Source: a virus
Direction: 5' to 3' (one strand)
IMG/VR virus record: IMGVR_UViG_3300014059_000004
Length of the DNA stretch: 21,429 nt
In this document: positions 3 to 13,233 of the stretch, in pieces
Layout: every line of letters starts with the position of its first letter
Numbering within the stretch: the stretch's first letter is position 1
Program-made: the position numbers and the translations under genes
Notes under the pieces: generated by a model
What the model saw: only the letters and a program-made list of their open reading frames with translations
Told to the model about the DNA's origin: nothing
The model's database searches: none

Positions 3-170
3 GACATCATCAATGTCTGCCGGAGTGAACTGTTCGAGATGATTCGCGAGGATCTCGACGCAGTGAAGTGGGACGAGCTCGACTTGGATGCCGTTGTTGC
101 ACACCCGATCGTCCACAAGATGATGGTGGAGCACCTCCGCGGGATCATCACTGACTTCACCGGGAAGTGA
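3..170 (+). CDS. 3' fragment of upstream gene (5' truncated by window)
   Basis: Open frame from the window edge; product ...DIINVCRSELFEMIREDLDAVKWDELDLDAVVAHPIVHKMMVEHLRGIITDFTGK. The TGA stop at 168-170 lies inside the first GTGAA box. Confidence 0.45.
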   Translation, partial: DIINVCRSELFEMIREDLDAVKWDELDLDAVVAHPIVHKMMVEHLRGIITDFTGK

Positions 171-202
171 ATAGTCGCTCCTGAAAGAGGTATACTAAGA
201 TC

Positions 203-370
203 ATGGACAAGCCCACCAAGAAGAGCAAGCGTGAGTTCATCCTCTGTCCCATCTGCGGTGCACGGTCGAAGAAGCTCTCATCGGAGTTCGGTGGTCTGGA
301 GACGCGGATGTGCACTGGCGGGTGCATCTTCAAGATCGACACGTGGATGAAGAAGCGAATTCGTCTGTGA
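203..370 (+). CDS. 55-aa zinc-ribbon-like small protein (CPICG...CTGGC)
   Basis: ATGG at 203 sits 6 nt after TATACT of the conserved unit; product MDKPTKKSKREFILCPICGARSKK...CTGGCIFKIDTWMKKRIRL. Below the ORF-track length cutoff. Stop TGA inside the next GTGAAT box. Confidence 0.6.
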   Translation: MDKPTKKSKREFILCPICGARSKKLSSEFGGLETRMCTGGCIFKIDTWMKKRIRL

Positions 371-402
371 ATCTTCACTCTTGAAAGAGGTATACTAGAA
401 TC

Positions 403-657
403 ATGGCGACCAAGAAGACCAAGAAGCCCGCACCCCAGCCCACCGACCTCGAGGCGGCGCTGAACATGCAGCTCGCAGAGGTCACAGAGGATGAACTTAC
501 CGCGGACGACGTGGAGACTGCGAGCAATGCAGAGAACTTTCTCTGTGAATTGATGCGAGCGTTCTACGGTCGTCCGGACATCTACAAGGTCCTGGAAACT
601 GCTGCGAACCTGTGCGCAGACATCCAGGCGCGAGGCGAAGAGCTCGATCTGGTGTAA
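403..657 (+). CDS. 84-aa acidic hypothetical protein
   Basis: Conserved promoter unit 367-405 followed by ATGG; ORF-track ORF; good GC3. Confidence 0.7.
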   Translation: MATKKTKKPAPQPTDLEAALNMQLAEVTEDELTADDVETASNAENFLCELMRAFYGRPDIYKVLETAANLCADIQARGEELDLV

Positions 658-727
658 TTCAGTCGCTCCTTAGCTTATACTGTAATCCACCAACGGACTT
701 CGACAGTCCACTGCAAAGAGAGAACGC

Positions 728-1000
728 ATGAACGTTTCGTTTTACCAGAAGTACCAGGATGTCATGGATCCCAGCCGGTACGTGGTTCCCATGCAGAAGG
801 GTTTGCAGAAGGGTTACCTCGACTGCCGGGTGTACTTCGATCGCTGCTTCGTCGGACGTGCCGAGATCTCGGAGTCGCTCCTGACCAACGAGGACGTGGG
901 CTTCAAGCTTCAGTTAACTGAAGAGCACGGGGTCGCAATAGCGGCAATTGCCTCGGTGGAAAGCCGAAGACGCAGGTTCGAATCCTGCCCCCGTGCCTAA
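728..1000 (+). CDS. 90-aa hypothetical ORF whose last ~25 codons overlap a tRNA-like element
   Basis: ATG preceded by AAGAGAG (SD-like) on a ~40-nt leader from TATACT at 676-681. The C-terminus ...SVESRRRRFESCPRA is the tRNA T-arm read as protein, so coding status is doubtful. Confidence 0.3.
   Translation: MNVSFYQKYQDVMDPSRYVVPMQKGLQKGYLDCRVYFDRCFVGRAEISESLLTNEDVGFKLQLTEEHGVAIAAIASVESRRRRFESCPRA
908..923. repeat. 16-bp perfect palindrome CTTCAGTTAACTGAAG immediately 5' of the tRNA-like gene
   Basis: Direct reading: CTTCAGTT and AACTGAAG are reverse complements. Confidence 0.8.
926..996 (+). tRNA. tRNA-like gene with non-canonical anticodon arm (candidate anticodon GAA)
   Basis: Acceptor 5' CACGGGG (926-932) pairs 7/7 with CCCCGTG (989-995). 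D-stem GCAA/TTGC with GG in the loop. T-arm GCAGG-TTCGAAT-CCTGC (972-988). No encoded CCA. The anticodon arm is imperfect: one C-A mismatch, G at position 33, a 3-nt variable loop, and 71 nt total. Confidence 0.45.
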
Positions 1001-1010
1001 GGATTCACGC

Positions 1011-1286
1011 ATGTCACGGTCAAAAGACGAACACAAGCTCGTCATCTACATCGCCACACCTCTTCGATGGCTCTTCTTCGGGCTCTACGATCCGCTCTTG
1101 TGGTGGGCCATGAAGCGGGTGACGAACACCATCAAGGTTCTTGTTCCTGACGTGGACATCACACGGTACCGTGAAGCAGGCGCTCTTGTCCTCGTGATAG
1201 ACGGCGAAAGAGTGGGTCAAGTCGCCGAGGCAGTCGGACATGTCCACGTTTGGATCGTCTCTTCGATCCAGAAGATCTGGTTGTAA
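1011..1286 (+). CDS. 91-aa hypothetical protein
   Basis: ATG with AAGGA 8 nt upstream, directly after the tRNA-like gene. GC3 about 65%. Competes with antisense ORF 1020-1364. Confidence 0.45.
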   Translation: MSRSKDEHKLVIYIATPLRWLFFGLYDPLLWWAMKRVTNTIKVLVPDVDITRYREAGALVLVIDGERVGQVAEAVGHVHVWIVSSIQKIWL

Positions 1287-1287
1287 C

Positions 1288-1536
1288 ATGGAACTCCGCT
1301 GGTTTTCTTTGCTTGCACTTTCGCTCGTCGTTTCGATCCTGTTTGTCATCGGCCTGTGGCTCAAAGAGCCGAAGCCCCCGCGAACCGTGAGGAAGATCGA
1401 ACGGACTTACGGACCTGACGGCGAGCCTGGTCCTCTACCACCCAAAGACCAGAAGTGGTTACATGAATCCCGGCGTTCTTTTTATCCTCTTCTTTGCAAT
1501 CCTCGGATTCGTCGGATTTGCGGGCGCTCTCGTTGA
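1288..1536 (+). CDS. 82-aa small protein with N-terminal transmembrane helix
   Basis: MELRWFSLLALSLVVSILFVIGLWLKEP...; internal ATG of track ORF 1240-1536, chosen because the hydrophobic segment starts there. Confidence 0.4.
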   Translation: MELRWFSLLALSLVVSILFVIGLWLKEPKPPRTVRKIERTYGPDGEPGPLPPKDQKWLHESRRSFYPLLCNPRIRRICGRSR

Positions 1537-1822
1537 ACGACGACACTCCAGGTACAAAGCTCAGCTCATCATCGAGCAGGAAGATCCAGGTTACCGTGCA
1601 TCTGGGAAGACGTACGTGGCCCGCATCGTGCCTGATAAGGCGCTGAATGAGGAGTACAAGTACTTCATAGATGATATATCCCAGATCCCAGATGCCTTTC
1701 ACAGGAGGATCGCAGCCAAAGAGCTAGACAAAGTCATCACTTTCTGGTGCAACTGTCGGTACGGTGCCAACAGGTGGACCGTGGAGGAAGACATTTATTC
1801 TCCGGCTCACGTTGACGAGTGA
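1463..1822 (+). CDS. 119-aa small protein with N-terminal transmembrane helix
   Basis: MNPGVLFILFFAILGFVGFAGALVERRH...; overlaps the previous ORF by 74 nt, so one of the two ends may be wrong. Confidence 0.45.
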   Translation: MNPGVLFILFFAILGFVGFAGALVERRHSRYKAQLIIEQEDPGYRASGKTYVARIVPDKALNEEYKYFIDDISQIPDAFHRRIAAKELDKVITFWCNCRYGANRWTVEEDIYSPAHVDE

Positions 1823-1854
1823 AAGGTCTATGGCGATTGAGTTAGTATTAGACC

Positions 1855-2223
1855 ATGGCAACACGCTCCCTCATCGGATACGAGAAGTCTGACGGTACCA
1901 TCGTCGTTTCGTACTGTCACTTCGACGGGTACCTGACCGGCGTCGGTGCAGATCTCCTGGCGTTGAAGCCCTCGGCTGTGAAAAAGATCATCGATGCCGG
2001 CGACATGAGCACGCTGAAGAGCGGACCATACACCCCAGTTGTCAAACCGAAGGTGTTCACTTCCCGCGAGGCTGCTCATACCTTCTTCAAGAATTCGTGG
2101 TGTGAATACTTCTACCTCCTGAGCCGCACGGGTCGGACGTGGTTTTACAACTGCGATTCGTCTGGCGTTTTTCACCCGCTCCGCGCCGCGGTGAACCAGG
2201 CGATCGAAAACGAAATGCGGTGA
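1855..2223 (+). CDS. 122-aa hypothetical protein
   Basis: Variant promoter unit GTGAAAGG...GAGTTAGTATTAGACC-ATGG; track ORF; stop TGA begins the next TGAACG box. Confidence 0.65.
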   Translation: MATRSLIGYEKSDGTIVVSYCHFDGYLTGVGADLLALKPSAVKKIIDAGDMSTLKSGPYTPVVKPKVFTSREAAHTFFKNSWCEYFYLLSRTGRTWFYNCDSSGVFHPLRAAVNQAIENEMR

Positions 2224-2255
2224 ACGCTCACGGCTGAACGAGGTATACTAGACTC

Positions 2256-2543
2256 ATGGACACCACGGGACTGCACCTCCTCAACCAGCTCTACATCATC
2301 GGAAGCGACAGTGCACTGAAGGCTGCGATGCAGCACCCGGACTGGGACGCTGGTTTCGATGCAGCGCTTCGGTTCAATGAACTTCCGTTTCGTCGGAAGG
2401 ACGTGTCTGACCTGGTCCTCCTGGCGTACCTCATCTCCGACCTCAGCTGTGAATTTTCCGTCGATGAGGATGGTCGACTGGTGTGTGAGTCACAGTACGA
2501 ATCGTGCGTTTGGTCTGACGGCATGTGGGTTACCGTCGACTGA
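2256..2543 (+). CDS. 95-aa hypothetical protein
   Basis: Unit TGAACGctcacggcTGAACGAGGTATACTagactcATGG; followed by palindromic element A. Confidence 0.7.
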   Translation: MDTTGLHLLNQLYIIGSDSALKAAMQHPDWDAGFDAALRFNELPFRRKDVSDLVLLAYLISDLSCEFSVDEDGRLVCESQYESCVWSDGMWVTVD

Positions 2544-2640
2544 TCACGTGAGGCCCACCGTTTAATCATCCGGATCAGTTAATGGTTACATACCTTCCGG
2601 CACCGTGATTAAACGGTGGGTCAACGGTGGGCTTCTCAGC
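2544..2640. repeat. Palindromic repeat element A (15-bp perfect inverted repeat CCCACCGTTTAATCA / TGATTAAACGGTGGG, 37-nt spacer)
   Basis: Inverted repeat arms at 2554-2568 and 2606-2620. Contains an ATCCGGAT palindrome and the boxes CACGTGAGGC and GGGTCAACGGTGGGCT that are shared with elements B and C. Confidence 0.75.
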
Positions 2641-2690
2641 AATTCATCTTCATTGTGAACTGCCGCAGCGATTCATGGTATACTAGAACC

Positions 2691-2951
2691 ATGGCAACCA
2701 AGCTGACTCTCACAGAAGTCAAGGTGCAGTTTCCCGGTGCTTGGGAATCGGAAATCGCAGGCCTGGATCCTGAGGATATCATGGATCTCCTGGGTGATAT
2801 GGCAGCCGGGGAATCGGAATACTGGGTTCACAACGGTACACTCTACGGACGCTCATGGTGGACTGCGCTTGGGTGGCACTACGGTGAATGGGACGGGACT
2901 TCTTGGTTCTGCCCGAATGCAGGGGAGGAAGTGTGTCCCTGGGGTGAGTGA
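2691..2951 (+). CDS. 86-aa hypothetical protein (MATKLTLTEV...)
   Basis: ATGG 6 nt after TATACT (tcATGGTATACTagaaccATGG). The track ORF 2616-2951 has an N-terminal extension that runs through repeat element A, which I rejected. Confidence 0.65.
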   Translation: MATKLTLTEVKVQFPGAWESEIAGLDPEDIMDLLGDMAAGESEYWVHNGTLYGRSWWTALGWHYGEWDGTSWFCPNAGEEVCPWGE

Positions 2952-2991
2952 CGCGGTGTAAATCATCGGCGATCTAGGTTATACTAGGCTC

Positions 2992-3327
2992 ATGGACACT
3001 AAGGCGAAGAAGGTTCGCAACTTCGTGGCGATCGCCATGGAGAAGCGTTGGGGCAAGAAGAGCAACGTTCACCGTCACCGTGCAGATCGTCGACCGAAGG
3101 ACGCTCGTCGTCACTGGTCCCGCGAGGAAGGATTACAGAGATGTGCCAATGTTTCACAATCGGCGGACCGTTCATCGGTGCTGACCCTGATTGCGCAGTT
3201 CACGGGGACGATGCGCAGGAACGCGATCGAGCGTTGGATTCACGGTTCGATGAGCTTCACGAGGAGATTGCACTTCTCCGGATGGAGATTGGGACTCTCC
3301 GCGATCTTCTCCAGGCACGAACTGTGA
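2992..3327 (+). CDS. 111-aa basic hypothetical protein (3' half overlaps an alternative frame)
   Basis: Unit ...ctaGGTTATACTaggctcATGG; N-terminus MDTKAKKVRNFVAIAMEKRWGKK is plausible; stop TGA inside a GTGAAT box. Confidence 0.4.
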   Translation: MDTKAKKVRNFVAIAMEKRWGKKSNVHRHRADRRPKDARRHWSREEGLQRCANVSQSADRSSVLTLIAQFTGTMRRNAIERWIHGSMSFTRRLHFSGWRLGLSAIFSRHEL

Positions 3328-3341
3328 ATCCTAACTCCTGA
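3141..3341 (+). CDS. 66-aa acidic coiled-coil protein in alternative frame
   Basis: ATG with GGAAGGA 8 nt upstream; product MCQCFTIGG...DELHEEIALLRMEIGTLRDLLQAR is very protein-like; stop TGA inside the next cTGAAAGAGG box. Confidence 0.4.
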   Translation: MCQCFTIGGPFIGADPDCAVHGDDAQERDRALDSRFDELHEEIALLRMEIGTLRDLLQARTVNPNS

Positions 3342-3359
3342 AAGAGGTATACTGAGATC

Positions 3360-3686
3360 ATGGCAATCGTCGACGCAGTGGTCATCAACGCAGCGAAGTT
3401 CCTGTGGAGTGGGAAGGTGGGCACGGCAGAGCTCTCGGATCTCCACGAGCAGGCTGTTGCAGAGCGTTGGGTCGATGTTCCGCGAGTCATGACGCTTGTG
3501 AACTTGTCGCGAGGAACGAAGCGAGTCTTCGCCGATCGCCGTGTCGTGAAAGACGATGGGGGTGATCCCGCTGGATGGTCCTGGACTTGCACTTCAGATC
3601 CCAACATGCAGGTCATCATCTACAACGATTTACGGTGCAACGTCACCCCTGAAAGAGGTACAGTAAGATCATGTCCAGTCCCCTGA
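3360..3686 (+). CDS. 108-aa hypothetical protein
   Basis: Unit cctGAAAGAGGTATACTgagatcATGG; the 3' end overlaps the next unit and start by 16 nt. Confidence 0.6.
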   Translation: MAIVDAVVINAAKFLWSGKVGTAELSDLHEQAVAERWVDVPRVMTLVNLSRGTKRVFADRRVVKDDGGDPAGWSWTCTSDPNMQVIIYNDLRCNVTPERGTVRSCPVP

Positions 3687-3898
3687 TGCTGCAGACCGAC
3701 TTCGAGATTCTCATCGACAACATCACAGATCTCGTGGAGGACGAGAGCAGGCTGCGCGCCATCTTTGCTGGTGAAATCATGCATGCACTCCACGATGGTC
3801 GCAAAGCGGTGCTGCTTCTCAGGAAGATTGCACCCTTCGTCAACGAGAGCACCGGTGGTGAGGTTGCTCGTTTTTTGAGCGATCTGGAACAGAAGTGA
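3671..3898 (+). CDS. 75-aa hypothetical protein
   Basis: Unit cctGAAAGAGGTACAGTaagatcATG; stop TGA inside a GTGAAC box. Confidence 0.65.
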   Translation: MSSPLMLQTDFEILIDNITDLVEDESRLRAIFAGEIMHALHDGRKAVLLLRKIAPFVNESTGGEVARFLSDLEQK

Positions 3899-3930
3899 AC
3901 AGTCAGACCTTAAAGAGGTACAGTAAGATC

Positions 3931-4224
3931 ATGGCACGGATCAACTGGTCGGAACCTAACGATATCGGCCGCAGCAATGCAATCTTCACCACGGAAGCAG
4001 CAGCTGGTTGGGAGGTGTATACCTACGATGCCTGGCCCGATCGGATCGAAGTCAACGCTCCTCAGTCGAGTCGTGTGAACATCGAGATCGAAGTCTCACG
4101 AGAGGAAGTTCGCGTATACGGTGAACATGCCTCGCGAGGTTACGGCGAAGCTTCTCCTTGTCAAGTGTACATCCCGTTCGAAGTGATGCGTTGCATCGTG
4201 GAATGGCAGGCTGCGCACCAGTGA
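3931..4224 (+). CDS. 97-aa hypothetical protein (MARINWSEP...)
   Basis: Unit GTGAACagtcagaccTTAAAGAGGTACAGTaagatcATGG at 3895-3933. I rejected the track's N-terminal extension 3895-. Confidence 0.65.
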   Translation: MARINWSEPNDIGRSNAIFTTEAAAGWEVYTYDAWPDRIEVNAPQSSRVNIEIEVSREEVRVYGEHASRGYGEASPCQVYIPFEVMRCIVEWQAAHQ

Positions 4225-4256
4225 ACAGTCAACCTTGAAAGAGGTATATTAAGACC

Positions 4257-4445
4257 ATGGCTGCTCCCTACAAGCGCGGAACGAAGCTGCAGTACGTCGG
4301 TGCACATCACAGTCATGGTCCCGTCACTTACGTGAAGTGGCATGGTTTTCTTCGAGGAGCACTCATCACCGTGCGCTTCCCGGACGGGGTGAAGAGAGTC
4401 GTTCACGTGGACGAAGTCTACCCGGTTGTGAATTTACCCTCGTGA
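4257..4445 (+). CDS. 62-aa hypothetical protein
   Basis: Unit GTGAACagtcaaccTTGAAAGAGGTATATTaagaccATGG at 4221-4259. Confidence 0.65.
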   Translation: MAAPYKRGTKLQYVGAHHSHGPVTYVKWHGFLRGALITVRFPDGVKRVVHVDEVYPVVNLPS

Positions 4446-4463
4446 AAGAGGTATACTGAGATC

Positions 4464-4697
4464 ATGGACAAGGCAACGTTGAACCGGTTGTACAGCGATT
4501 ACCATGCTCAGATCGTCCTCTTGGCACGTGACCTCAAGGAGGTGAAGCGCAGCTTGGACACGATCGTTCACATCCGTGAGCAGCTCATGCTCGAGGCCGT
4601 CCATTTCGAGGAGGAACTTTTGGAGGAAGGCAGCGACGAAGTGCAAAACCTCATCGATGTCATCCCGCTTCTCCAGATGGAAGTTGACGATCGCTGA
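4464..4697 (+). CDS. 77-aa acidic coiled-coil protein
   Basis: Unit GTGAATttaccctcgTGAAAGAGGTATACTgagatcATGG. Confidence 0.7.
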   Translation: MDKATLNRLYSDYHAQIVLLARDLKEVKRSLDTIVHIREQLMLEAVHFEEELLEEGSDEVQNLIDVIPLLQMEVDDR

Positions 4698-4733
4698 GTG
4701 AATCTTCACCCCTGATTGAGGTATACTAGAACC

Positions 4734-4940
4734 ATGGACACCAAGCAACTCGCTGCGAAGGCCGCCAACGCCATCTCCGACCTGGTCCTCGAGGATGAGT
4801 ACACTGTCGACATCGACCAGGTGGTGGGTGGTCTTGACGACGACGGAAAGTTCACAATGGAGAAGTTGTTGACCATCAACACCAAGCTTGTGTACGAAGT
4901 CACCGTGACCGCGAAGGTCGTGAACCTCGACGACGAGTGA
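4734..4940 (+). CDS. 68-aa acidic hypothetical protein (MDTKQLAAKAANA...)
   Basis: Unit GTGAATCTTCACccctgattGAGGTATACTagaaccATGG at 4698-4736; I rejected the track's N-terminal extension. Confidence 0.7.
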   Translation: MDTKQLAAKAANAISDLVLEDEYTVDIDQVVGGLDDDGKFTMEKLLTINTKLVYEVTVTAKVVNLDDE

Positions 4941-5379
4941 AAAGCTTCCCCTCCTTGTGGTATACTTAACTTATCTTAAAGCTTGCTGGAATGAGGGTGC
5001 GCACCAGGATAAAAACTCACTCCCAATGCCGAGCACTGTCGAAAAGGTTCCGGGTAGGAACGCCTGCAAGGGTGCACAGTGAATCGATTCGGTTCGACTC
5101 CGAAGCTTGGCTCGAAGAGATCGACGGTTGGTCACCGTCGGTTGAATCCCTGGGTGATCCAAAGCTGGCTGACCACTTGCATTAAATCACCCAGGAAAGT
5201 CTCATTCGTCTAGTTGGACCAGGACGCCGGCGTCAGTCGGAGACGGAGGATCATAGCCTCCATGAGACGCAACTGTGAAAGAGAAGCGCAGGTTCGAATC
5301 CTGCTCGCCGGGCGATTGCCAGGCGAAAGTGTCGAAGACGGTGCACGCTCTTGCTAACTCACCTCATGAGGAGCACAGA
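4941..5379 (+). ncRNA. Structured non-coding island behind an extended -10 promoter (TGG-TATACT, 4958-4966), carrying tRNA-like modules
   Basis: No credible ORF. Three T-loop-like motifs: GGTTCGACTCC (5091-5101), GGTTGAATCC (5140-5149) and GGTTCGAATCC (5291-5301). A 10-bp stem CCTGGGTGAT/ATCACCCAGG (5149-5158 and 5185-5194). An anticodon-like hairpin GGAGG-ATCATAG-CCTCC (5245-5261, CAT in the loop). A candidate class-II-length tRNA at 5028-5112, where acceptor GCCGAGC pairs 7/7 with GCTTGGC including one G-U pair. The 3' module 5288-5312 (T-arm plus acceptor strand) is 18/18 identical to the T-arm of tRNA-like gene 926-996. Confidence 0.35.
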
Positions 5380-5601
5380 ATGGAATTTCCGAAAGTTACT
5401 CTACCGATTGATCCCGAGCTGGTGCAGACTACCATCAACATTCTGCACGACTTCATCGCCGAAAAAACTCGCGAGGCGTGGGTGGCTCAAGAACTCTTGA
5501 AGTTCATCAGGAGCACATGTCCCCACAAGAACGTTAAGCGCGACGGCGACATGTGCTCCGAATGCGGGTATACCCAGTACAACAACGATCCGAACTATTA
5601 G
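5380..5601 (+). CDS. 73-aa protein with C-terminal CxxxK...CxxC metal-binding motif
   Basis: ATG with GAGGAG 7 nt upstream (classical SD). The track ORF 5275-5601 has an N-terminal extension through the tRNA-like T-arm (RRFESC), which I rejected. Confidence 0.5.
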   Translation: MEFPKVTLPIDPELVQTTINILHDFIAEKTREAWVAQELLKFIRSTCPHKNVKRDGDMCSECGYTQYNNDPNY

Positions 5602-5603
5602 AC

Positions 5604-5864
5604 ATGACTGACGAGCAATGCACTTTCTGCGGGCAGCGGAAGAGTGGAACGCTTAAGCCAGTGATTCTCACCAATCCGGGCGAGGGATGCACGTACGGCT
5701 TGAGGCACGAGTGGGTGCAGATCTCTGTGAAAAGAACTGCAAGGCCAAAGTACACCGTCCCGCCGAAGTGGCGTCCCTCGTGGCGAGAGGCATGGTCAGA
5801 ACTGTTCATGTGTCGCTTTGATCATCGATGTCGTCGGCTGATATCTGTGAACTGCTCGAGCTGA
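5604..5864 (+). CDS. 86-aa Cys-rich hypothetical protein (MTDEQCTFCGQ...)
   Basis: ATG 3 nt after the previous stop; stop TGA inside the next cTGAACGAGG box. Confidence 0.45.
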   Translation: MTDEQCTFCGQRKSGTLKPVILTNPGEGCTYGLRHEWVQISVKRTARPKYTVPPKWRPSWREAWSELFMCRFDHRCRRLISVNCSS

Positions 5865-5882
5865 ACGAGGTATACTAGAACC

Positions 5883-6152
5883 ATGAAGATCATCATCGCT
5901 GGCGTCCCCAACGAAGGCAAGACGACCATTGCCCAGTTCATCACCCACGCTCTTCGCGATGCCGGGTTCGCTGTGAATCACACAGATTGTGATAGCGGTC
6001 TCGTGGCGGACGAAGCCTCAGGCCTCCAGCGCAGCCGCCTCGAGGCAGTGGGCAAGAGGCTCGGACCCATCACCGTGGCGACCACTTCCATTGGCCGCTC
6101 GGGCTGCACGGTGATCATCCCACCGCCCGAAGGTGGTTTACCATTGGTCTGA
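5883..6152 (+). CDS. 89-aa P-loop (Walker A GVPNEGKTT) protein, probably truncated
   Basis: Unit cTGAACGAGGTATACTagaaccATG. The Walker A motif is at residues 7-14 with no recognisable Walker B. The last ~8 codons and the stop are encoded by the repeat box GGTGGTTTACCA..TCTGA, shared with the 3' end of ORF 10643-10981. Confidence 0.6.
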   Translation: MKIIIAGVPNEGKTTIAQFITHALRDAGFAVNHTDCDSGLVADEASGLQRSRLEAVGKRLGPITVATTSIGRSGCTVIIPPPEGGLPLV

Positions 6153-6200
6153 CATGATGATTAAACCGTGAGGCTTCTGTGGGCTGCAGTTTAATCATCG
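6153..6200. repeat. Palindromic repeat element B (11-bp perfect inverted repeat GATGATTAAAC / GTTTAATCATC, 22-nt spacer)
   Basis: Arms at 6156-6166 and 6189-6199. The spacer carries CCGTGAGGCTTCTGTGGGCTG, related to elements A and C. Confidence 0.75.
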
Positions 6201-6241
6201 CTGAAGTGAACGTTGGTCTCGGTGCGAGGTATACTAGAACC

Positions 6242-6487
6242 ATGAAGACTCTCACTGCTCGGTCCATGTGTCGGTGGATTGGAAACCGTGTTCGTCTGAA
6301 GCCGAACGTGAAGGAAGGATGGAAGGAAGAGTTTGGTACGTACGAGGGTGCTTCTGGTAACGGGTGCTGCATTGTCACAGTCGACGAGAAATACCGTGAC
6401 GGAAAGCTGGACGACGGCGTTCGTGAAGTGACGTACGACCAGATCGAGAAAATCTACGTTCCTGGGCAGCGTGCGCCCAAGGTGTGA
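6242..6487 (+). CDS. 81-aa hypothetical protein (MKTLTARSMCRW...)
   Basis: Unit GTGAACgttggtctcggtgcGAGGTATACTagaaccATG. I rejected the track's N-terminal extension through element B. Confidence 0.65.
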   Translation: MKTLTARSMCRWIGNRVRLKPNVKEGWKEEFGTYEGASGNGCCIVTVDEKYRDGKLDDGVREVTYDQIEKIYVPGQRAPKV

Positions 6488-6521
6488 ATCATTCACGTAG
6501 GTGAGGTATACTAGGATCATG
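6484..6521 (+). promoter_or_regulatory. Representative promoter unit: palindromic -35-like box GTGAATCATTCAC, then GAGGTATACT, aggatc, ATGG
   Basis: 13-bp perfect palindrome GTGAAT-C-ATTCAC at 6484-6496 overlapping stop TGA 6485-6487. TATACT at 6507-6512, 6 nt before ATG 6519. Confidence 0.6.
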
Positions 6522-6809
6522 GACCCCATCGTCGGCGGACGTGTTCAGAAGACGTGTTCGAACTGCAAGAAGTTTGTGTACATCACGGTCGAAGAAGATG
6601 AAAACCTGATCGGATGTCACGTGCTCTGCCAGCGTTGCGATGCAGCGTACTATTCCTGGCGAGTGCGCACCTGTGGTGTATATGTCGATACCTTCCTGAA
6701 GTCTGTGGAGGCAAAGCGGGCGCGACCTGTGAAGCCACGGGCCAAGAAGTTGCACAAGAAGCGCTCGGCGGCGCAGCGGAAGGCAGATCGCGCGAAGTGC
6801 GGCGGCTGA
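6519..6809 (+). CDS. 96-aa zinc-ribbon protein, paralog 1 (CSNCKK...GCHVLCQRCD)
   Basis: Conserved unit. About 50% identical over ~60 aa to the next gene: KTCSNCKKFVYITVEEDENLIGCHVLCQRCDAAYYSWRVRT versus KSCSNCRKMVYLTERDAKHVVGCYLFCERCDIAYYDWKMRT. Confidence 0.7.
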   Translation: MDPIVGGRVQKTCSNCKKFVYITVEEDENLIGCHVLCQRCDAAYYSWRVRTCGVYVDTFLKSVEAKRARPVKPRAKKLHKKRSAAQRKADRAKCGG

Positions 6810-6846
6810 AGTGCAACGTCCCTCGGGAAAGGGGTATACTAAGATC

Positions 6847-7086
6847 ATGGACATCGCGAGCATCACCAATATGACGTGGAAGTCTTGTTCGAACTGCAGA
6901 AAGATGGTATACCTCACCGAGCGTGATGCTAAGCACGTGGTTGGTTGTTACTTGTTCTGTGAACGTTGCGATATCGCCTACTACGACTGGAAGATGCGAA
7001 CGGGCAATGCACTTGCTCAGGTCTTCCTGGCGTCTGTCGAAGCCAGACGAGCGCGGTTGCCTCGTTACGCACGAAACTACTTCTGA
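6847..7086 (+). CDS. 79-aa zinc-ribbon protein, paralog 2 (tandem duplicate of 6519-6809)
   Basis: Unit GGGAAAGGGGTATACTaagatcATGG; paralogy read directly from the translations. Confidence 0.7.
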   Translation: MDIASITNMTWKSCSNCRKMVYLTERDAKHVVGCYLFCERCDIAYYDWKMRTGNALAQVFLASVEARRARLPRYARNYF

Positions 7087-7123
7087 GGTGTAACCTCTCC
7101 ACTGAAAGGGGTATACTAAGATC

Positions 7124-7558
7124 ATGGCCACCAAGAAGAAGAACGATCTGGTTCAGATGCTCGAGAACCGCGCCTGGGATTGCACCGTGGGCGCTGGAAT
7201 CACGGACGAAGACGACGTTCCCTCGTACCAGAAGGAGTGCCGTCGCAACGTGGAGAGTGAACTTGGCCGTGCCCTGACGATGGAAGAGGTCAACGCGTTC
7301 TGGGACGCCTGGAAGCGTTGCATGCAGGAGATCGCTCAGCCTTTAGGAGGTGAACAGTGTCTCACACGAACTACCGTCGGAAGCCTCGCGGGCGTCACAA
7401 GAACGAAAAGTTCGCTTGGAAGAATGCAAGTGCATGGCGGCAGATCATCGTCCAGCAGGAGCGTGCTGCCTCGCGGATCGTGGTGTACACCAACATCGTT
7501 CGAGTTCCGGTACCGAAGCGCATTCCGCGACCGTGGTAGTTACTTATCGGCATCATGA
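7124..7558 (+). CDS. 144-aa ORF (MATKKKNDLV...); the C-terminal ~65 aa is low-complexity and overlaps the 7357 gene
   Basis: Unit cacTGAAAGGGGTATACTaagatcATGG. The first ~80 aa are plausible. No in-frame stop until 7558. Confidence 0.45.
   Translation: MATKKKNDLVQMLENRAWDCTVGAGITDEDDVPSYQKECRRNVESELGRALTMEEVNAFWDAWKRCMQEIAQPLGGEQCLTRTTVGSLAGVTRTKSSLGRMQVHGGRSSSSRSVLPRGSWCTPTSFEFRYRSAFRDRGSYLSAS
7357..7539 (+). CDS. 60-aa basic protein with GTG start and strong SD AGGAGG
   Basis: AGGAGGtgaacaGTG; GC3 is higher than in the overlapping frame; a TGA closes this frame immediately upstream. Confidence 0.4.
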   Translation: MSHTNYRRKPRGRHKNEKFAWKNASAWRQIIVQQERAASRIVVYTNIVRVPVPKRIPRPW

Positions 7559-7815
7559 CGATGCCGCACTATTCACCGCCGAAGCAGAAGCCGCCAGCTG
7601 AACCTCAGAAGAAGCAACTCTTCGGCGATGCACCCCCAGCCACTTGCCACGTGGTGATGCGGAAAGATCCAGGTCTCGGGTGGTCTCCCATCGCGGTCTT
7701 CAGCAGCGGTGAACCTGCGTTGAAGCACGCAGAAGACTTCATGGAGAAGATGCAGGCCAAGAGACCCGATCTGGAGCTTCGGATTGAAGACAGGATTCCG
7801 CTGATCAGCACGTGA
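7555..7815 (+). CDS. 86-aa proline-rich hypothetical protein
   Basis: Track ORF with good GC3; no conserved unit and a weak RBS. Confidence 0.5.
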   Translation: MTMPHYSPPKQKPPAEPQKKQLFGDAPPATCHVVMRKDPGLGWSPIAVFSSGEPALKHAEDFMEKMQAKRPDLELRIEDRIPLIST

Positions 7816-7855
7816 AAGAGTGCAACGTTCCACCTCACAGTGGTAAACTAGAATC

Positions 7856-8107
7856 ATGGAAGAGTTCATCACCTACCGGTGCCCGGACTGCGGCGGACCC
7901 TCGCATCCCGCTTCTGGGTGCCAGTACACCGAGACCTACGTGGTGTGCGGACCTTGCACCCGGCGAGCCTGGAAGTGGATCATTTCACAGGTGAACGGAA
8001 AAGGTCGCCGGAACGGGATCAACTTTTACGACCACGTGAACCGGATCGCACCTCCCATCAGTGCAACATCCACCACGAACGAGGTACAGTTAGATCATGG
8101 CTGCTAA
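7856..8107 (+). CDS. 83-aa zinc-ribbon protein (CPDCGG...CGPC)
   Basis: Variant unit GTGAAAGAGtgcaacgttccacctcacagtGGTAAACTagaatcATGG. The C-terminus ...TNEVQLDHGC is encoded by read-through of the next promoter unit. Confidence 0.65.
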   Translation: MEEFITYRCPDCGGPSHPASGCQYTETYVVCGPCTRRAWKWIISQVNGKGRRNGINFYDHVNRIAPPISATSTTNEVQLDHGC

Positions 8108-8348
8108 AAGAGGTAACGGGTTCATCGATTACAAACCGACCATGTCCGACATCAAGGAGAATGCACTCGCAAAGATCCGTGATGCATCCTGGGACGTATC
8201 CATGCTGGAAGGTGACCTTTCGGACAGGGGTTTCCCGGAGGTTGCACTTCGCTACGAGGCAATCCAGAAAAAGCTGGAGGAGTTGGAGGCCGAGCTCCGC
8301 AAGCTTCCGCTGTTACACACCGTGCACATCAACCCTTCCTTAGCTTAG
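8097..8348 (+). CDS. 83-aa hypothetical protein with C-terminal coiled coil
   Basis: Unit cacGAACGAGGTACAGTtagatcATGG; stop TAG inside the CCTTAGCTTAG box. Confidence 0.65.
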   Translation: MAAKRGNGFIDYKPTMSDIKENALAKIRDASWDVSMLEGDLSDRGFPEVALRYEAIQKKLEELEAELRKLPLLHTVHINPSLA

Positions 8349-8386
8349 CAGTGAATATTCTTCGTTAAAAGAGGTACAGTAAGACC

Positions 8387-9241
8387 ATGGCAATCACCAC
8401 CACCTACGGGAATCCCCGCAACGGCGATCAGGTTACCACGATCAACTTCGAAGGTCGCGTGGTCTCGGTCGACAATGTCACCGAGCGTCGGAACTGGAGC
8501 GACACGCTGGACTACAGCGACTGGCGGATGACTGACTGCACCATCGCCACTGTGTACCTGGGACGCTACGGTGCCAAGAACACCTACGATCGCTACGATG
8601 CTGCCACGATGCCCCGCGAGCGCTACGGGGCGCTGGTGGCTGACAAGCGTCGGTCGCCCATCGTGGAACTTCCCGTTCACGAGCGCTTCCTGGAGGTCGA
8701 CGTGACGAACATGTGGGCATGGCGCACTGGCAAGGTCGACGTAGCGGTCGCCGATGCGGACGAGGCCACGTATCCCGAGCTCAACCACGATTACGCAGAG
8801 TACATGGCTCACATCGCCAACGAGCGGAAGCGTGACGAGGAACGTCGGCGTGCCCGAGAGGAGGCCGAGCTGGCTGAGCGCATCCGTGAGGAAGAGAACC
8901 GACCGGTCATCGGGAAGAAGATGATCGTGGCTCGTGGTCGCAAGGTGAAGGTCGGAACTGTGGGCACGGTTGCATTCGTCAGGGACGGTAGCGTCCTCCT
9001 GAAGCCCGATGCCACGTGGACGGATCGGAAGGTCGGCGGTGTCTGGGTGCAGGCTCACAACCTGGAGCTTCGTCGGCCGTGCACTGCTCACGAGGATTGT
9101 GCAGCCTCGCCCGAGCTGGGTGAAGCTTGCGTCGGTCAGAAGCACATCCACCTCTTAAACGAGGCCCACTCGGGCTTCACAGAAAAACTTTGGGTTATTG
9201 GATGGGGATTACCACCATCCGGACTCAAGGCGACACCGTGA
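8387..9241 (+). CDS. 284-aa hypothetical protein with central charged ER/K-rich helix and C-terminal C-x2-HEDC motif
   Basis: Unit GTGAATattcttcgTTAAAAGAGGTACAGTaagaccATGG. Longest gene of the array. The C-terminus RRPCTAHEDCAASPELGEACVG is shared with ORF 13707-14135. Confidence 0.75.
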   Translation: MAITTTYGNPRNGDQVTTINFEGRVVSVDNVTERRNWSDTLDYSDWRMTDCTIATVYLGRYGAKNTYDRYDAATMPRERYGALVADKRRSPIVELPVHERFLEVDVTNMWAWRTGKVDVAVADADEATYPELNHDYAEYMAHIANERKRDEERRRAREEAELAERIREEENRPVIGKKMIVARGRKVKVGTVGTVAFVRDGSVLLKPDATWTDRKVGGVWVQAHNLELRRPCTAHEDCAASPELGEACVGQKHIHLLNEAHSGFTEKLWVIGWGLPPSGLKATP

Positions 9242-9291
9242 GGCCCGAGAGTGAAGTGAATCTTCGGAAACGAACGAGGTATACTAGAACC

Positions 9292-9531
9292 ATGAACAAC
9301 ACCTACGATCACGCTGCTGCGTTGTGGGCTCTCGGAACGCACATGGGTGATGAGGCCCGTGAGATCAATGCGTTGGTCGACCAGCTGAGCGAGAAGATCG
9401 CCAAGCTCGACAGTGCAAAGCTTCCAGTAGAGGTTCGCGTTCAGATCTTCTCGCACGTCACCAAGATCTGTGCACTCTCCCACGAGGCCAAGGATCTGGA
9501 GAAGCTTCTTTGCGATCCCACGTGGGAGTGA
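9292..9531 (+). CDS. 79-aa hypothetical protein (MNNTYDHAAALWALG...)
   Basis: Unit GTGAAGTGAATCTTCggaaacGAACGAGGTATACTagaaccATG; I rejected the track's N-terminal extension 9127-. Confidence 0.65.
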   Translation: MNNTYDHAAALWALGTHMGDEAREINALVDQLSEKIAKLDSAKLPVEVRVQIFSHVTKICALSHEAKDLEKLLCDPTWE

Positions 9532-9563
9532 AAGATCGTCTCTGAAAGGGGTATACTAGAACC

Positions 9564-9746
9564 ATGGAAACCATGAAGACCCTTAAGCGAATCGTCGTCC
9601 GCACTCGGTGGGAAGGCTGCAACGTCGACCTGAAGTTCACTGTCGACGAGATGAAAGAGGCTCGTCGCATCTGCGCCTGGATCAACAGCGGTGCAACTGA
9701 GTTCGGAGCCGCGAAGATCGTCAAGGTGTTCGCGCGGTCGAAGTGA
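9564..9746 (+). CDS. 60-aa hypothetical protein
   Basis: Unit GTGAAAGatcgtctcTGAAAGGGGTATACTagaaccATGG. Confidence 0.6.
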   Translation: METMKTLKRIVVRTRWEGCNVDLKFTVDEMKEARRICAWINSGATEFGAAKIVKVFARSK

Positions 9747-9781
9747 ACAGTCCCTCCTGAAAGGGGTATACTAAGATCATG
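9743..9781 (+). promoter_or_regulatory. Representative promoter unit GTGAACagtccctccTGAAAGGGGTATACTaagatcATGG
   Basis: -35-like GTGAAC (overlapping stop TGA 9744-9746), 17-nt spacer containing TGAAAGGGG, TATACT at 9767-9772, ATG at 9779. Confidence 0.6.
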
Positions 9782-10099
9782 GCCCGGAAGAAGAGCTACA
9801 ACCCCGAGAAGCGACAGTGGCGCGGTGCATCTTACAAGGCAGGCCGCGAGCGAATCGCGGTTCTCCGTGAAAAGGCGCACCGCGAGGTGCAACCCGCCGA
9901 GACGCTCTTCACCTGCCGGTGCTGCGGTGAATCTTCTCGAGGCCTGACGGACGGGACGTTCTTCAACCCAGGCTGGGGTCGGATCGATCGGATCGACGGC
10001 CCGAATGCAATCTGCCCGGAGTGCATCGCGGATCCCCATGCTCTTGATGGCCTGAAGGAAGACGGGTTCGAGAGTGCGGCAGTGAAACTTCTCTCCTGA
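9779..10099 (+). CDS. 106-aa zinc-ribbon protein (CRCCG...CPEC)
   Basis: Conserved unit; N-terminus MARKKSYNPEKRQ is basic. Confidence 0.65.
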   Translation: MARKKSYNPEKRQWRGASYKAGRERIAVLREKAHREVQPAETLFTCRCCGESSRGLTDGTFFNPGWGRIDRIDGPNAICPECIADPHALDGLKEDGFESAAVKLLS

Positions 10100-10117
10100 A
10101 AGAGGTATACTGAGATC

Positions 10118-10435
10118 ATGGACATCTACGGAATCGCACTTCACTCGGCCCTGGAGCGTCGGAAGCACCTCGCAGCAGTGCTCGCAGTGCAGCTCCAGAA
10201 CCCGCTGCTGAGCCGCGCGGCAGCGAAGACGGGTGAACAGATCTTCGTCGTGGATCGGATCATCGAGGACCTGGAGACGGACATCCTGAAGCGCTGTGCA
10301 ACTTCCCTCCCGAATGAGGTACAGTTAGATCATGCTCCACCAAACGATTCGCAAAGCCAAGATCCAGTCCACCTCCGGACATCCCAAGCCCTTCATCGTC
10401 TTTCGTTCCGCGAAGCTCACCCCCGTCTCTGGTGA
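10118..10435 (+). CDS. 105-aa ORF that reads through an internal promoter unit (…PNEVQLDH…)
   Basis: Unit GTGAAActtctctccTGAAAGAGGTATACTgagatcATGG. The frame continues through the GAGGTACAGTtagatcATG unit at 10315-10334 and overlaps the next gene by 100 nt. The 3' ~35 codons are doubtful. Confidence 0.5.
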   Translation: MDIYGIALHSALERRKHLAAVLAVQLQNPLLSRAAAKTGEQIFVVDRIIEDLETDILKRCATSLPNEVQLDHAPPNDSQSQDPVHLRTSQALHRLSFREAHPRLW

Positions 10436-10589
10436 CACCAAGTTCCAACCCGGTGATACGGTGCAAATTTGGTTCGACTCAAGCATCTCATTCACCTCAA
10501 ACGTCAACGACGCATCAAAGCACCTCATTCGCAAAGATAAGTCAGACACGGGTGAAATCTGGTCGTGGTTAGGTTACGTCTCATCTTAG
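10332..10589 (+). CDS. 85-aa hypothetical protein
   Basis: ATG 6 nt after TACAGT of the internal unit; stop TAG inside a CTTAGCTTAT box. Confidence 0.55.
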   Translation: MLHQTIRKAKIQSTSGHPKPFIVFRSAKLTPVSGDTKFQPGDTVQIWFDSSISFTSNVNDASKHLIRKDKSDTGEIWSWLGYVSS

Positions 10590-10642
10590 CTTATCTTCTT
10601 CCCGCGATGCAATGTTTCCACTGAAAGAGGTATACTGAGATC

Positions 10643-10981
10643 ATGGCCGCTACATTCAAGATCATCCCGGGCAGCATGTTCAAGGCGCAGTACGTGGAGG
10701 CGTTCGAGTGCGTCGACAATGACGAGCTCGACCTGGAGATCGAGGAGCCGTTCACTTTCGGTGAGGTGTCGATCCCCGGCCACGGGAAGCGTGGGTGTCT
10801 CGTGATGAGCTCCACCAAGAAGCCAGGGTGGTTCTACGACGAGGACGATGGGTGGCAGCGTGTACCGAGCGGTGAGACCTTCATCGAGGTCACCAGCACC
10901 GGCCAACCGGTGGCCAACACAGGGAAGCCCAGGGCTGCACGGTTAAACCCGTGCGGTCAAGGGGTGGTTTACCACCTCTGA
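10643..10981 (+). CDS. 112-aa hypothetical protein; C-terminus encoded by repeat element C
   Basis: Unit cacTGAAAGAGGTATACTgagatcATGG. The last ~15 codons contain hairpins GCACGG-ttaaac-CCGTGC and GGTGG-ttta-CCACC plus the shared box GGTGGTTTACCAcctcTGA. Confidence 0.65.
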   Translation: MAATFKIIPGSMFKAQYVEAFECVDNDELDLEIEEPFTFGEVSIPGHGKRGCLVMSSTKKPGWFYDEDDGWQRVPSGETFIEVTSTGQPVANTGKPRAARLNPCGQGVVYHL

Positions 10982-11020
10982 ATAATCAAAGGGCTCACGT
11001 GGGTCAACGGTGGGCTCGAA
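10937..11020. repeat. Palindromic repeat element C (shares GGTGGTTTACCA with B and GGGTCAACGGTGGGCT and CACGTGGG with A)
   Basis: Direct comparison of sequences 10937-11020, 2544-2640 and 6128-6200. Confidence 0.7.
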
Positions 11021-11071
11021 ACTCGCTCTGTTTCCGTGCAACGGTGATTGTAGCTGAGGTATACTAGACTC

Positions 11072-11287: not shown

Positions 11288-11319
11288 AAAGTAACCCCAA
11301 AGCGAGTTAAACTAGGCTC

Positions 11320-11514: not shown

Positions 11515-11546
11515 ACGTTGCACCGCCCTTAGCTTATACTTGGTTC

Positions 11547-12118: not shown

Positions 12119-12155
12119 AGTGTAATTCAACGGTGATCTGGGTTATACTAGAACC

Positions 12156-12461: not shown

Positions 12462-12493
12462 ACCTGCAGGCGCGGGCGAGGTAAGATAGAACC

Positions 12494-13205: not shown

Positions 13206-13233
13206 ATACTTAGCCCAACACGGTCGGACCCAG

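Follow-up and report, generated by a model that had tools for sequence, protein, structure and literature searches.

A 21,429-nucleotide (nt) stretch of DNA from the IMG/VR virus record IMGVR_UViG_3300014059_000004, hereafter the window, carries on its + strand an island that comprises a promoter at 4937-4966 and a predicted RNA of ~380 bases at ~4973-5352. On balance, this island is probably a jumbo-phage transcription unit resembling a transfer RNA (tRNA) operon, in which mimics that do not decode have replaced the decoding tRNAs. Its modules come from tRNA genes, and each of them can fold, and be deleted, separately; to judge from their predicted structures the normal anticodon loops have been lost in three of them (modules A, C and F). 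Comparison of related sequences supports the tRNA origin and the structure of the island, and we infer its expression, processing and molecular role. An earlier reading of the letters alone (the original prediction) had proposed a promoter-driven, non-coding and tRNA-related locus here, and this is supported by a promoter found in 26 copies, by the lack of a conserved open reading frame (ORF) and by the comparative data.

Transcription unit and comparative constraint

The island promoter consists of a -35-like GTGAAA (4937-4942), a 15-nt spacer and an extended -10, TGGTATACT at 4958-4966, the last of which had been correctly noticed beforehand. It belongs to a standard phage promoter: GGTATACT occurs in 21 copies on the + strand of the window against 0.10 expected, and if TATACT variants are allowed the pattern GTGNA-N17-(G/C)(G/T)TATACT is found 26 times (sites 160-14460). 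An ATG lies exactly 6 nt past the -10 in 24 of these 26 copies, as in leaderless genes, and the array indicates a long run of small leaderless ORFan genes. The ATG is absent only at two copies, one at 676, upstream of the ORF that contains a tRNA-like element at 926-996, and the other at 4961 in the island, which has ATC in its place. A standard promoter with no ATG behind it marks the island as a transcription unit that begins with non-coding sequence, and by analogy with the leaderless genes its RNA is predicted to start near A4973. The promoter is kept in all 15 island variants described below, and the counterpart in the distant relative L040 has the promoter GTGAA-N19-TAGAGT, likewise without an ATG. 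The promoter architecture of L040 is the same as that of the window, with TAGAGT or TAGACT as the -10. Many G-U pairs are present in the island structure on the + strand; together with the promoter and the orientation of the T loops they identify this as the transcribed strand, despite the better fold z-score of the minus strand. The leaderless promoters and a GC content of ~55% suggest an actinobacterial or similar host.

Relatives were found through homologues of two products of the window, one of 284 amino acids (aa; 8387-9241) and one of 68 aa (4734-4937) whose gene adjoins the island, on contigs from many independent metagenomes (Logan, ENA and JGI). The comparison set consists of 15 distinct island versions and one distant relative, L040, a 309-kb IMG/VR contig whose marker protein is 36% identical to the 284-aa family protein of the window. 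Among the contigs of the cluster identical to the window's 68-aa protein the longest measures 313,755 bp, and the 92-kb contig L024 matches the window, which points to a jumbo-phage-like genome; the contig family of the element spans ~90-314 kb. A search of IMG/VR with a profile of the 284-aa family yielded 21 jumbo-phage loci at a greater distance, L040 among them. In the more distant relatives L032 (from Hainich groundwater), L036-L039 and L050/L051, 9-20 ordinary tRNAs lie within 10 kb of the homologous marker protein, and the ancestor of the island was plausibly a canonical tRNA array of this kind. Exact-pattern scans of viral sequences (promoter, modules A, C and D, and a gapped A motif) matched the L040 contig only, and the same scans of metagenomes and genomes gave no match.

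Our comparison bears out the earlier statement that the island has no convincing ORF, as no reading frame survives the indels and deletions among the 15 variants. Coding through the ORFs 4991-5185 and 5275-5601 was considered and rejected: a 40-nt deletion in L009/L011 takes out the sole ATG of the longest ORF, and indels of 23-27 nt elsewhere complete the disruption in relatives. Since these changes destroy the reading frames, we regard the island as non-coding.

The promoter, the leader and modules A and B follow each other in the same order in all 15 variants, and the remaining parts are more changeable. The 40 nt missing in L009/L011 belong to the leader, L015 has lost everything past 5277 (modules D and E and the tail), B2 has a short form in the window and a long form (+23-24 nt) in 8/15 variants, and an additional unit, module F, lies past the tail in seven of them. 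The variants are also mosaic; L030, for instance, is 98% identical in the flanking gene and 83% in module C. At the deletion in L015, CTGTG of the island is fused with the following promoter's -35, GTGCAA, with GTG as microhomology, and this junction suggests recombination between promoter-like GTG(A/C)A sequences.

Variation is distributed very unevenly along the island. The upstream 68-aa gene varies at 52/204 sites (21/68, or 31%, at third codon positions), in contrast to 2/85 in module A (Fisher p = 6e-7 against the gene), 0/17 in the two linkers link1 and link2, 0/17 in the T arm of module D and 3/55 in the leader. In the other parts 6/19 sites vary in B1, 19/47 in B2, 18/70 in C and 6/27 in the tail, and in B and C, where 26-40% of sites vary, the stems are kept through compensatory changes. 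Invariant blocks thus alternate with others whose variation equals or exceeds that of the neighbouring gene, where the rate looks neutral. Such a pattern is compatible with selection on particular RNA elements and not with a recent sweep of the whole island.

The same picture is given by the pairing itself. When a hand-specified structure of 95 pairs was laid on the 15-sequence alignment, 97.5% was paired and 4/95 pairs were altered on both sides, a number equalled in 4/500 shuffles (slid controls 0-1); these changes are located in B1, the apical stem of B2 and the acceptor of module C. Conserved stems with compensatory changes in relatives, which had been named beforehand as a check of the locus, are hence found. 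Moreover, the window contains four canonical T-arm hairpins against 0.18 in 300 dinucleotide shuffles, two of them inside the island. The fourth, CGAGG-TTCGATC-CCTTG, lies at ~19932-19948 on the minus strand, where no tRNA is called.

Modules of the island

Module A (5028-5112, + strand) is the core of the island and the best conserved of its tRNA-shaped RNAs. It had been singled out as an 85-nt tRNA candidate with a fully paired GCCGAGC/GCTTGGC acceptor, and we find it to be a real acceptor-plus-T-arm RNA with covariation support. The 7-bp acceptor (5028-5034/5105-5111) is followed by helix X (5035-5039/5076-5080), which encloses the junction GAAAAGG, hairpin H1 (5047-5051/5057-5061, loop GGGUA) and hairpin H2 (5062-5064/5071-5073, stem GCC/GGU with the 6-nt loop UGCAAG). 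The linker GAAUCGA (5081-5087) then leads to a canonical T arm (5088-5104, loop UUCGACU, with the motif GGTTCGACTCC at 5091-5101) and to the discriminator U5112. A therefore retains the acceptor, a T arm with a canonical loop and a GG-containing junction, and a new helix with two small hairpins replaces the D and anticodon arms.

A homologue of A is present at L040:5072-5157 (nhmmer E = 2e-8; blastn 78% over 65 nt), behind the ATG-less promoter. Between the two lineages eight pairs are altered on both sides, namely four in the acceptor, one in helix X, one in H1 and two in the T stem, with 98.7% of the alignment cells paired, and slid controls gave 0-3 such changes. The unpaired motifs AAAAGG, GGGUA, GAAUCGA and GGUUCGACUCC are conserved as well. 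Helix X measures 5-6 bp in this supported fold. A cloverleaf for A, with the D stem CUGUC/GGUAG, was tried and rejected, since it reaches -21.3 as compared with -27 to -29 kcal/mol and breaks in L040 when paired by hand. H2, the former anticodon hairpin, consists of 3 bp and a loop of 6 nt in which no triplet is conserved: the loop reads UGCAAG in the window lineage but CUCCAG in L040. Of the features of a canonical tRNA, A possesses the 7-bp acceptor, the 5-bp T stem and the UUCRANY T loop, with both stems covarying; a 7-nt loop on a 5-bp anticodon stem with a conserved anticodon is found in none of A, C and F. Between these two lineages, A conserves a shape and an unpaired core, not an anticodon or an aminoacylation identity set.

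The origin of A is indicated by a covariance model (R1), which we ran over 450 kb of related loci. The known copies scored 95-110 bits, and the next-best match, at 24 bits, was a canonical phage tRNA-Cys(GCA) at L038:15165-15240. The L038 gene and A share the discriminator U73, the 3' trailer CGAA and the T loop UUCGACU, and they also have in common three motifs that the tRNA carries in its D loop (AAAGG), its anticodon loop (UGCAA) and its long variable region (UGAAU). On these grounds A is best read as a remodelled tRNA-Cys gene, in which the anticodon arm seems to have been shortened and new pairings to have arisen, giving a different conserved fold. An acceptor/T-arm limb, helix X and two hairpins make A a candidate for a new RNA family, with two lineages so far. 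In L040 the non-coding RNA around A (4974-5070 and 5150-5215) contains several mutually complementary copies of CUGGUC/GACCAG. The segment CUCCCA in the L040 leader repeats the 5' acceptor strand of its own A. In the minimum free energy (MFE) structure of L040 the leader is bound to the 3' side of A, which leaves room for alternative folds there.

Module B (5122-5195, + strand) comprises two hairpins with covarying stems. B1 (5122-5140) has a 6-bp stem, CGACGG/CCGUCG, and a 7-nt loop, (U/C)UGGUCA, with an invariant core UGGUCA. The stem changed independently in a compensatory manner to CGUCGG/CCGACG in L028 and to CAACGG/CUGUUG in L008, L015 and L019. In B2 (5149-5195) the strands CCUGGGUG and CACCCAGG form the outer stem, the interior is variable, and the apical loop holds the invariant GCUGACCACU (within 5168-5178); the 10-bp stem CCTGGGTGAT/ATCACCCAGG of the original prediction is present at 5149-5158 and 5186-5195. 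In the long form of B2 the apical stem covaries (UA to CG, GU to GC), as does an inner hairpin (GC to AU), and RNAalifold on six long-form B domains recovered the same helices plus the inner hairpin. The junction GUUGAAUC between the hairpins (5141-5148) varies at 0/8 sites and has no T stem around it. Its UUGAA may form a T-loop-type turn. All three T-loop motifs reported earlier are thus present, with GGTTCGACTCC in A and GGTTCGAATCC in D residing in proper 5-bp T arms, but GGTTGAATCC (5140-5149) is the B1/B2 junction and not a T arm.

The B2 loop sequence UGACCA (5170-5175; CUGACCA) can form six complementary base pairs (-7.8 kcal/mol) with the UGGUCA of B1 in 15/15 variants, and from the sequences a loop-loop contact between B1 and B2 is plausible. 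Visual inspection and duplex energy point to a comparable motif pair in L040, GGUCUC/GAGACCACUU. Antisense targets of the B2 loop are not enriched in the window, where we counted four matches, one of them the loop itself, against 1.8 expected.

Module C (5199-5269, + strand) is a cloverleaf similar to tRNA-Asp/Glu without an anticodon, and its stems pair in 15/15 variants. It has the acceptor GUCUCAU/AUGAGAC (5199-5205/5262-5268) with discriminator G5269, a tRNA-Glu/Asp-type D arm, UC-GUC-UAGUUGGACCAG-GAC (5207-5226), and an 'anticodon' stem of 5 bp, CCGGC/GUCGG (5227-5231/5236-5240), closed by the 4-nt loop GUCA. A 4-nt variable region and the T arm GGAGG-AUCAUAG-CCUCC (5245-5261) follow. The acceptor shows a compensatory UA to CG change in L020/L030. 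The 4-nt loop reads GUCA, GUGG, GCGA or GGAA among the variants, and the T loop reads AUCAUAG, AUCGUAC, AUCAUAC or UUUGAAU, or the canonical UUCGAAU in L020, a form that ends in an encoded CCA. C thus has the acceptor and T stem of a tRNA, with a canonical T loop in L020 only.

The hairpin GGAGG-AUCAUAG-CCUCC was described earlier as presenting CAU like an anticodon loop. It does exist, but it is the T arm of C with a loop that differs among variants, not a CAU anticodon arm. The same hairpin underlies a 'tRNA-Met(CAT)' that ARAGORN calls at 5227-5313, with the anticodon at position 26. We reject this call as a false positive, because its acceptor is a strand of the anticodon stem of C and its anticodon arm is the T arm of C. 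The proposed acceptor contains a U-U mismatch in most variants, to which L020/L030 add an A-C mismatch, and L015 lacks its 3' half. In L001 ARAGORN changes the call to 'tRNA-Thr', and the supposed anticodon loop reads ATCGTAC, ATCATAC or TTCGAAT elsewhere.

Module F lies past the tail in L002, L003, L008, L009, L011, L021 and L023 (e.g. L003:1636-1705) and is also a cloverleaf, with the acceptor AGCCCUU/AAGGGCU, U8-A9 and the T-arm loop UGCGAGU. Its anticodon stem-loop, GUGAC-AGA-GUCAC, has 3 nt in place of 7, and the module still scores 32.5 bits on the Rfam tRNA model. In L008 an 8-nt deletion takes away one strand of the anticodon stem of F.

The 5' leader (4973-5027, + strand) contains a hairpin predicted by RNAalifold, GGAAUGAG (4988-4995)/CUCACUCC (5016-5023), and is dispensable, as shown by the deletion in L009/L011. 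A long-range duplex between 4993-5005 and 5340-5352 (-20 kcal/mol) belongs to the MFE structure and is kept in L001. As each of its strands is deleted in some variants, we rejected this closing helix as a required element and left it as optional.

Module D is an orphan canonical T arm, GCAGG-UUCGAAU-CCUGC (5288-5304, + strand), which contains GGTTCGAATCC at 5291-5301. As the original prediction had stated, it shares 18/18 nt with the T arm of the tRNA-like element 926-996, that is CGCAGGTTCGAATCCTGC at 971-988 and 5287-5304, with 0 expected by chance. No conserved 5' acceptor partner exists for D, and the partner chosen by ARAGORN (5227-5233) breaks in L020/L030. The acceptor-like 3' strand UCGCCGG (5305-5311) is used instead in hairpin E. 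The promoter-spacer box CTGTGAAAGAG (5273-5283), to which significance was attached at first, is present in the window but not conserved, reading TCCCAAAGAG in L020 and L030. The D 26-mer, GCGCAGGTTCGAATCCTGCTCGCCGG, is not matched by any of 185,579 genomes (one per species; exact matches only).

Hairpin E (5306-5325, + strand), CGCCGGGC/GCCAGGCG, keeps its stem and has the loop GAUU, GAACG or AGAAAC among the variants; no U tract follows it, and it may serve as a terminator or 3' stabiliser. The conserved tail AAAGUGUCGAAGACGGUGCACGCUCUU (5326-5352, + strand) comes next, and the similarity among variants stops beyond it. The tail contains GUCGAAG at 5331-5337 (GUCGAAGG or GUCGAAUG in variants), which fits GNCGAAN0-1G, a pattern expected ~0.16 times by chance in 384 nt. 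This motif has been linked to Ro60/Rsr binding in YrlA RNAs (PMC4201824).

Standard searches and neighbouring elements

All 4,227 Rfam families were searched at the gathering threshold and, on 4850-5450, also at E <= 10. At gathering thresholds the sole match is the tRNA at 926-996 (39.2 bits). The relaxed search adds only the T arm 5284-5304 (15.3 bits, E = 3.2) and a poor alignment of 5028-5111 to tRNA-Sec (15.2 bits, E = 4.4), and no module of the island in the window reaches the curated threshold of the full cloverleaf model RF00005 (29 bits). GOLLD, ROOL, HEARO, 6S and group I introns have no match in the island at either setting. The original prediction had also offered transfer-messenger RNA (tmRNA) and intron-containing tRNAs as options and neither holds: ARAGORN -m detects no tmRNA even at the 80% threshold and Rfam none at E <= 10, and ARAGORN -i detects no intron-containing tRNA, lowered thresholds included, with no Rfam intron family either. 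A lack of Rfam matches above threshold had been named, together with transcript data that show no stable RNA, as grounds for giving up the locus. Formally the island has none, yet the comparative data show a conserved structured RNA. ARAGORN places a false tRNA-Met in the island, and both it and Rfam miss the conserved elements, which is a practical warning. Distant-mode blastn of 4600-5700 gave no DNA match to annotated phage records, and PHROGs and Pfam gave nothing significant on the window proteins.

The tRNA-like element at 926-996 (+ strand) is called tRNA-Phe(GAA) by ARAGORN and has G33 replacing the usual U33. It also forms the last 24 codons of an ORF with a Shine-Dalgarno sequence (728-1000). 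Upstream lies the second ATG-less promoter (CTTATACT at 674-681), followed by the hairpin GGACU-UCGAC-AGUCC and then by this ORF. In the L001 homologue the ORF stays in frame (+6 nt), and the tRNA-like part has a 12-nt 'anticodon' loop and a weaker acceptor and is called a tRNA by no tool.

The gene directly downstream of the island (5368-5598, + strand) has the Shine-Dalgarno GAGGAG at 5368-5373, starts with ATG at 5380 and encodes 73 aa with CxxC motifs and no Pfam match. No TATACT promoter is found between 4961 and 5871. Lacking a promoter of its own, 5380-5598 is probably co-transcribed with the island in the window variant. The genes 5380-5598 and 5604-5861 are both small CxxC genes with a Shine-Dalgarno sequence and no promoter, unlike their leaderless neighbours, and both would be co-transcribed with the island. 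In 10/15 variants a promoter and other genes come after the island instead. A homologue of the second CxxC gene lies directly past module F in L009/L011. Further on, 5883-6149 encodes an 89-aa protein with the Walker A motif GVPNEGKT and sub-threshold Pfam matches to P-loop kinases/NTPases, KTI12 among them (E = 0.008), and it is the first gene past the island in L001, L008 and L015. Among the called genes within 10 kb the only Pfam match is AAA_5, and direct Pfam scans of 14 window proteins were negative.

Unusual tRNAs are seen in the distant relatives, too (L032:1-3700; L038:13900-20400; L037:400-5100), where some have 8-nt anticodon loops ('taat', 'ggtg') and one, L032:1389-1461, has a 6-nt loop. 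An 86-nt tRNA-Asn with a long variable arm belongs to these arrays. Two tRNA-like units of L032 are not called, one with a hairpin within the D loop (614-697) and one with an acceptor G3:U70, A73 and a non-cloverleaf body (1743-1819).

Alternatives, known systems and significance

Several observations weigh against a unit of tRNA mimics. The + strand fold barely beats shuffles (z = -1.86), and the covariation in A comes from one divergent sequence, L040. The acceptor and discriminator of A are wholly different between the lineages (GCCGAGC...U and CUCCCAC...A), so no common aminoacylation identity is preserved and the partner protein is not guessable. The leader, D with E and the tail, and F are each absent from some variants. 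In the window the T loop of C is non-canonical, so C may not form a tRNA elbow. The loop cores of B1 and B2 never vary within the close lineage, so variation does not probe their pairing there, and the homology of the L040 motif pair to B is uncertain, as L040 has competing pairings. Each step beyond a conserved structured RNA is inferred.

The island might simply be a decaying tRNA array, with functionless pseudogene modules that look conserved because they share a recent ancestor or were spread by recombination. Relatives with intact arrays beside the same marker protein fit such a history, and so do the destroyed anticodon loops, the degenerate T loop of C, the 3' fragment D, the deletion of whole modules in some variants and the mosaic structure seen in L030. 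We consider it unlikely, however, as across the 15 genomes A, the linkers and D show ~10x less variation than the adjacent gene does, and these invariant parts are interleaved with the highly variable B2 and C, unlike after a recent sweep. Stems are moreover maintained by compensatory changes, the A fold persists in L040 despite the distance of its marker protein, both lineages keep a dedicated promoter, and C and F show a clean excision of the anticodon loop with intact stems, unlike random decay. A single large structured RNA that stays uncut, has its ends closed by 4993-5005/5340-5352 and works as one unit, in the manner of the large phage-associated RNAs found beside tRNA genes, would account for the survival of that duplex through sequence change in L001 and its place in the MFE structure, for the invariant linkers and for the complementary B1 and B2 loops. 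It appears quite doubtful all the same: the closing helix has lost its 5' strand in L009/L011 and its 3' strand in L015, all of which keep A, B and C, L040 clearly shares only A, with a seemingly different module order if its motif pair is B, and neither GOLLD, ROOL and HEARO nor any other Rfam family matches. It seems improbable to us that A, and perhaps 926-996 too, still functions in decoding as a tRNA with a very unusual shape, such as a tRNA-Cys, missed by standard finders, whose extra arm is long and whose anticodon loop has 6 nt. U73 is an identity element for the cysteinyl-tRNA synthetase, and A has this discriminator, a U-GCA-AG loop, a phage tRNA-Cys as its nearest canonical relative and a level of conservation typical of tRNA genes; related phages also have tRNAs with 6- and 8-nt anticodon loops and long variable regions. 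On the other hand, the 'anticodon' stem of A has just 3 bp, sits on a three-way junction and carries a 6-nt loop, the triplet, the discriminator (A) and the entire acceptor stem differ in L040, a D arm is lacking and helix X has covariation on its side, and the Rfam tRNA and tRNA-Sec models give <= 15 bits.

A role in cis, in which the island would be a 5' leader controlling or stabilising the two downstream zinc-ribbon genes with Shine-Dalgarno sequences (5380-5598 and 5604-5861), is very unlikely. These genes have no promoter of their own in the window, L020/L030 and L009/L011, but in 10/15 variants and in L040 another promoter or unrelated genes stand directly past the island, which hence persists independently of them. 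We give least credence to the idea that the tRNA 3'-end copies (D and 961-996) are attachment (att) or recombination cores matching a host tRNA, or that the island is a tmRNA or YrlA homologue. A tRNA 3' fragment such as D is the typical att form, the tail has GNCGAAN0-1G, and tRNA-like modules are a hallmark of YrlA and tmRNA. Against this, no exact genome match of the D 26-mer was found (a diverged host tRNA is possible), Pfam detects neither an integrase nor an Rsr domain within 10 kb, tmRNA is missed by ARAGORN at a lowered threshold and, like YrlA, by Rfam at E <= 10, and the tail motif has the chance expectation given above. The att-core proposal of the original prediction is accordingly left without support.

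Placing the unit of tRNA mimics beside known systems, we find it closest to the phage tRNA clusters, including that of T4, which are likewise promoter-driven, polycistronic, tRNA-shaped units of large phages, presumably matured by RNase P and at the 3' end. Two small stable RNAs whose function is unknown, species 1 and 2 (rnaC/rnaD), are even co-transcribed with the tRNAs of the T4 operon. Unlike such clusters, the island has no unit with a 7-nt anticodon loop, A is devoid of D and anticodon arms, and no amino acid can be assigned. RNAs of the mascRNA/MALAT1 type are cloverleaves with a small, poorly conserved anticodon loop that set the ends of an adjoining RNA by recruiting RNase P and RNase Z. 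They are a good analogy for C and F, but mascRNA is eukaryotic and nuclear, whereas the island consists of several tandem phage modules, and A is conserved beyond the needs of a cleavage signal. Like tmRNA, A has an acceptor and T arm without normal D and anticodon arms, its body is replaced by another helix, and pseudoknot-type elements lie nearby. However, its acceptor is closed from adjacent sequence (85 nt apart), whereas that of tmRNA brings together both termini of a 350-nt RNA. Moreover, A has G4-U69 and not G3-U70, and no tag reading frame was identified. D resembles the tRNA fragments of integration sites as a T arm and 3' acceptor strand without a 5' half, but it has no exactly matching host tRNA and no integrase, and it is invariant within a promoter-led non-coding unit.

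The YrlA group of Y RNAs is non-decoding with a tRNA-like domain that has T-arm, D-loop-like and acceptor-like features (Chen et al. 2014, PMC4201824). Within this group, M. smegmatis YrlA is an RNase P substrate and acquires CCA, the 'anticodon' loop of D. radiodurans Yrn1 measures 6 nt, and the genes lie on the same strand as rsr within ~4 kb (PMC4201824). The island RNAs are similar in being non-decoding with retained tRNA features and in the GNCGAAN0-1G of the tail. In contrast, the YrlA domain is closed at the acceptor and opens to a Ro-binding stem, and A opens at the acceptor; no Rsr/TROVE gene was found among the called genes within 10 kb by Pfam, no Rfam match to the YrlA covariance model was obtained, and the motif occurs only in the 3' tail and not near the 5' end. 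The island thus lacks defining features of YrlA, mascRNA-type RNAs and tmRNA, and by analogy would function most like a phage tRNA operon with mimic products.

If so, a primary transcript would start near 4973 and be made when the small leaderless genes around it are. The acceptor/T-arm stack and the elbow are what RNase P recognises. From what is known of pre-tRNA processing, and with the precedent of a tRNA-like Y RNA that has a 7-bp acceptor stem, is an RNase P substrate and acquires CCA (PMC4201824), the host enzyme would be expected to cut 5' of G5028 (A) and of G5199 (C), and 3' processing and CCA addition would complete the ends, as for pre-tRNAs. The products would be a stable ~85-nt RNA (A), the B domain and C. 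Unable to read codons, A would offer its acceptor/T-arm limb and elbow to a host or phage protein that recognises tRNAs, and might act as a mimic, competitor or adaptor; the loops of B would kiss to give a compact domain, and C, D and E would chiefly supply processing sites and 3' stability. Whether A would be a decoy of host factors for defence or processing, would serve a phage protein as adaptor or would have another role, the sequence cannot decide.

Phage tRNA genes are usually explained as helpers in codon usage or as a means to replace tRNAs that host defences have cut. The tRNA genes of the island have taken on forms in which decoding is very unlikely, and yet they are under strong constraint and behind a promoter of their own in two distant phage lineages, which points to a use of the tRNA shape itself. 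For A this offers clear, testable predictions on processing and protein binding. A bolder extension, which we hold only tentatively and think rather unlikely, is that in this clade of jumbo phages tRNA genes gave rise to a dedicated class of mimics without anticodons (the A fold and the cloverleaves with 3-4-nt loops), expressed from early-type promoters as decoys or adaptors for host factors that recognise tRNAs. If true, candidate targets would include defence toxins directed at the acceptor or elbow, RNase P, and CCA-adding or modification enzymes, and the island would represent an RNA-based device for counter-defence or takeover, distinct from supplying replacement decoding tRNAs.

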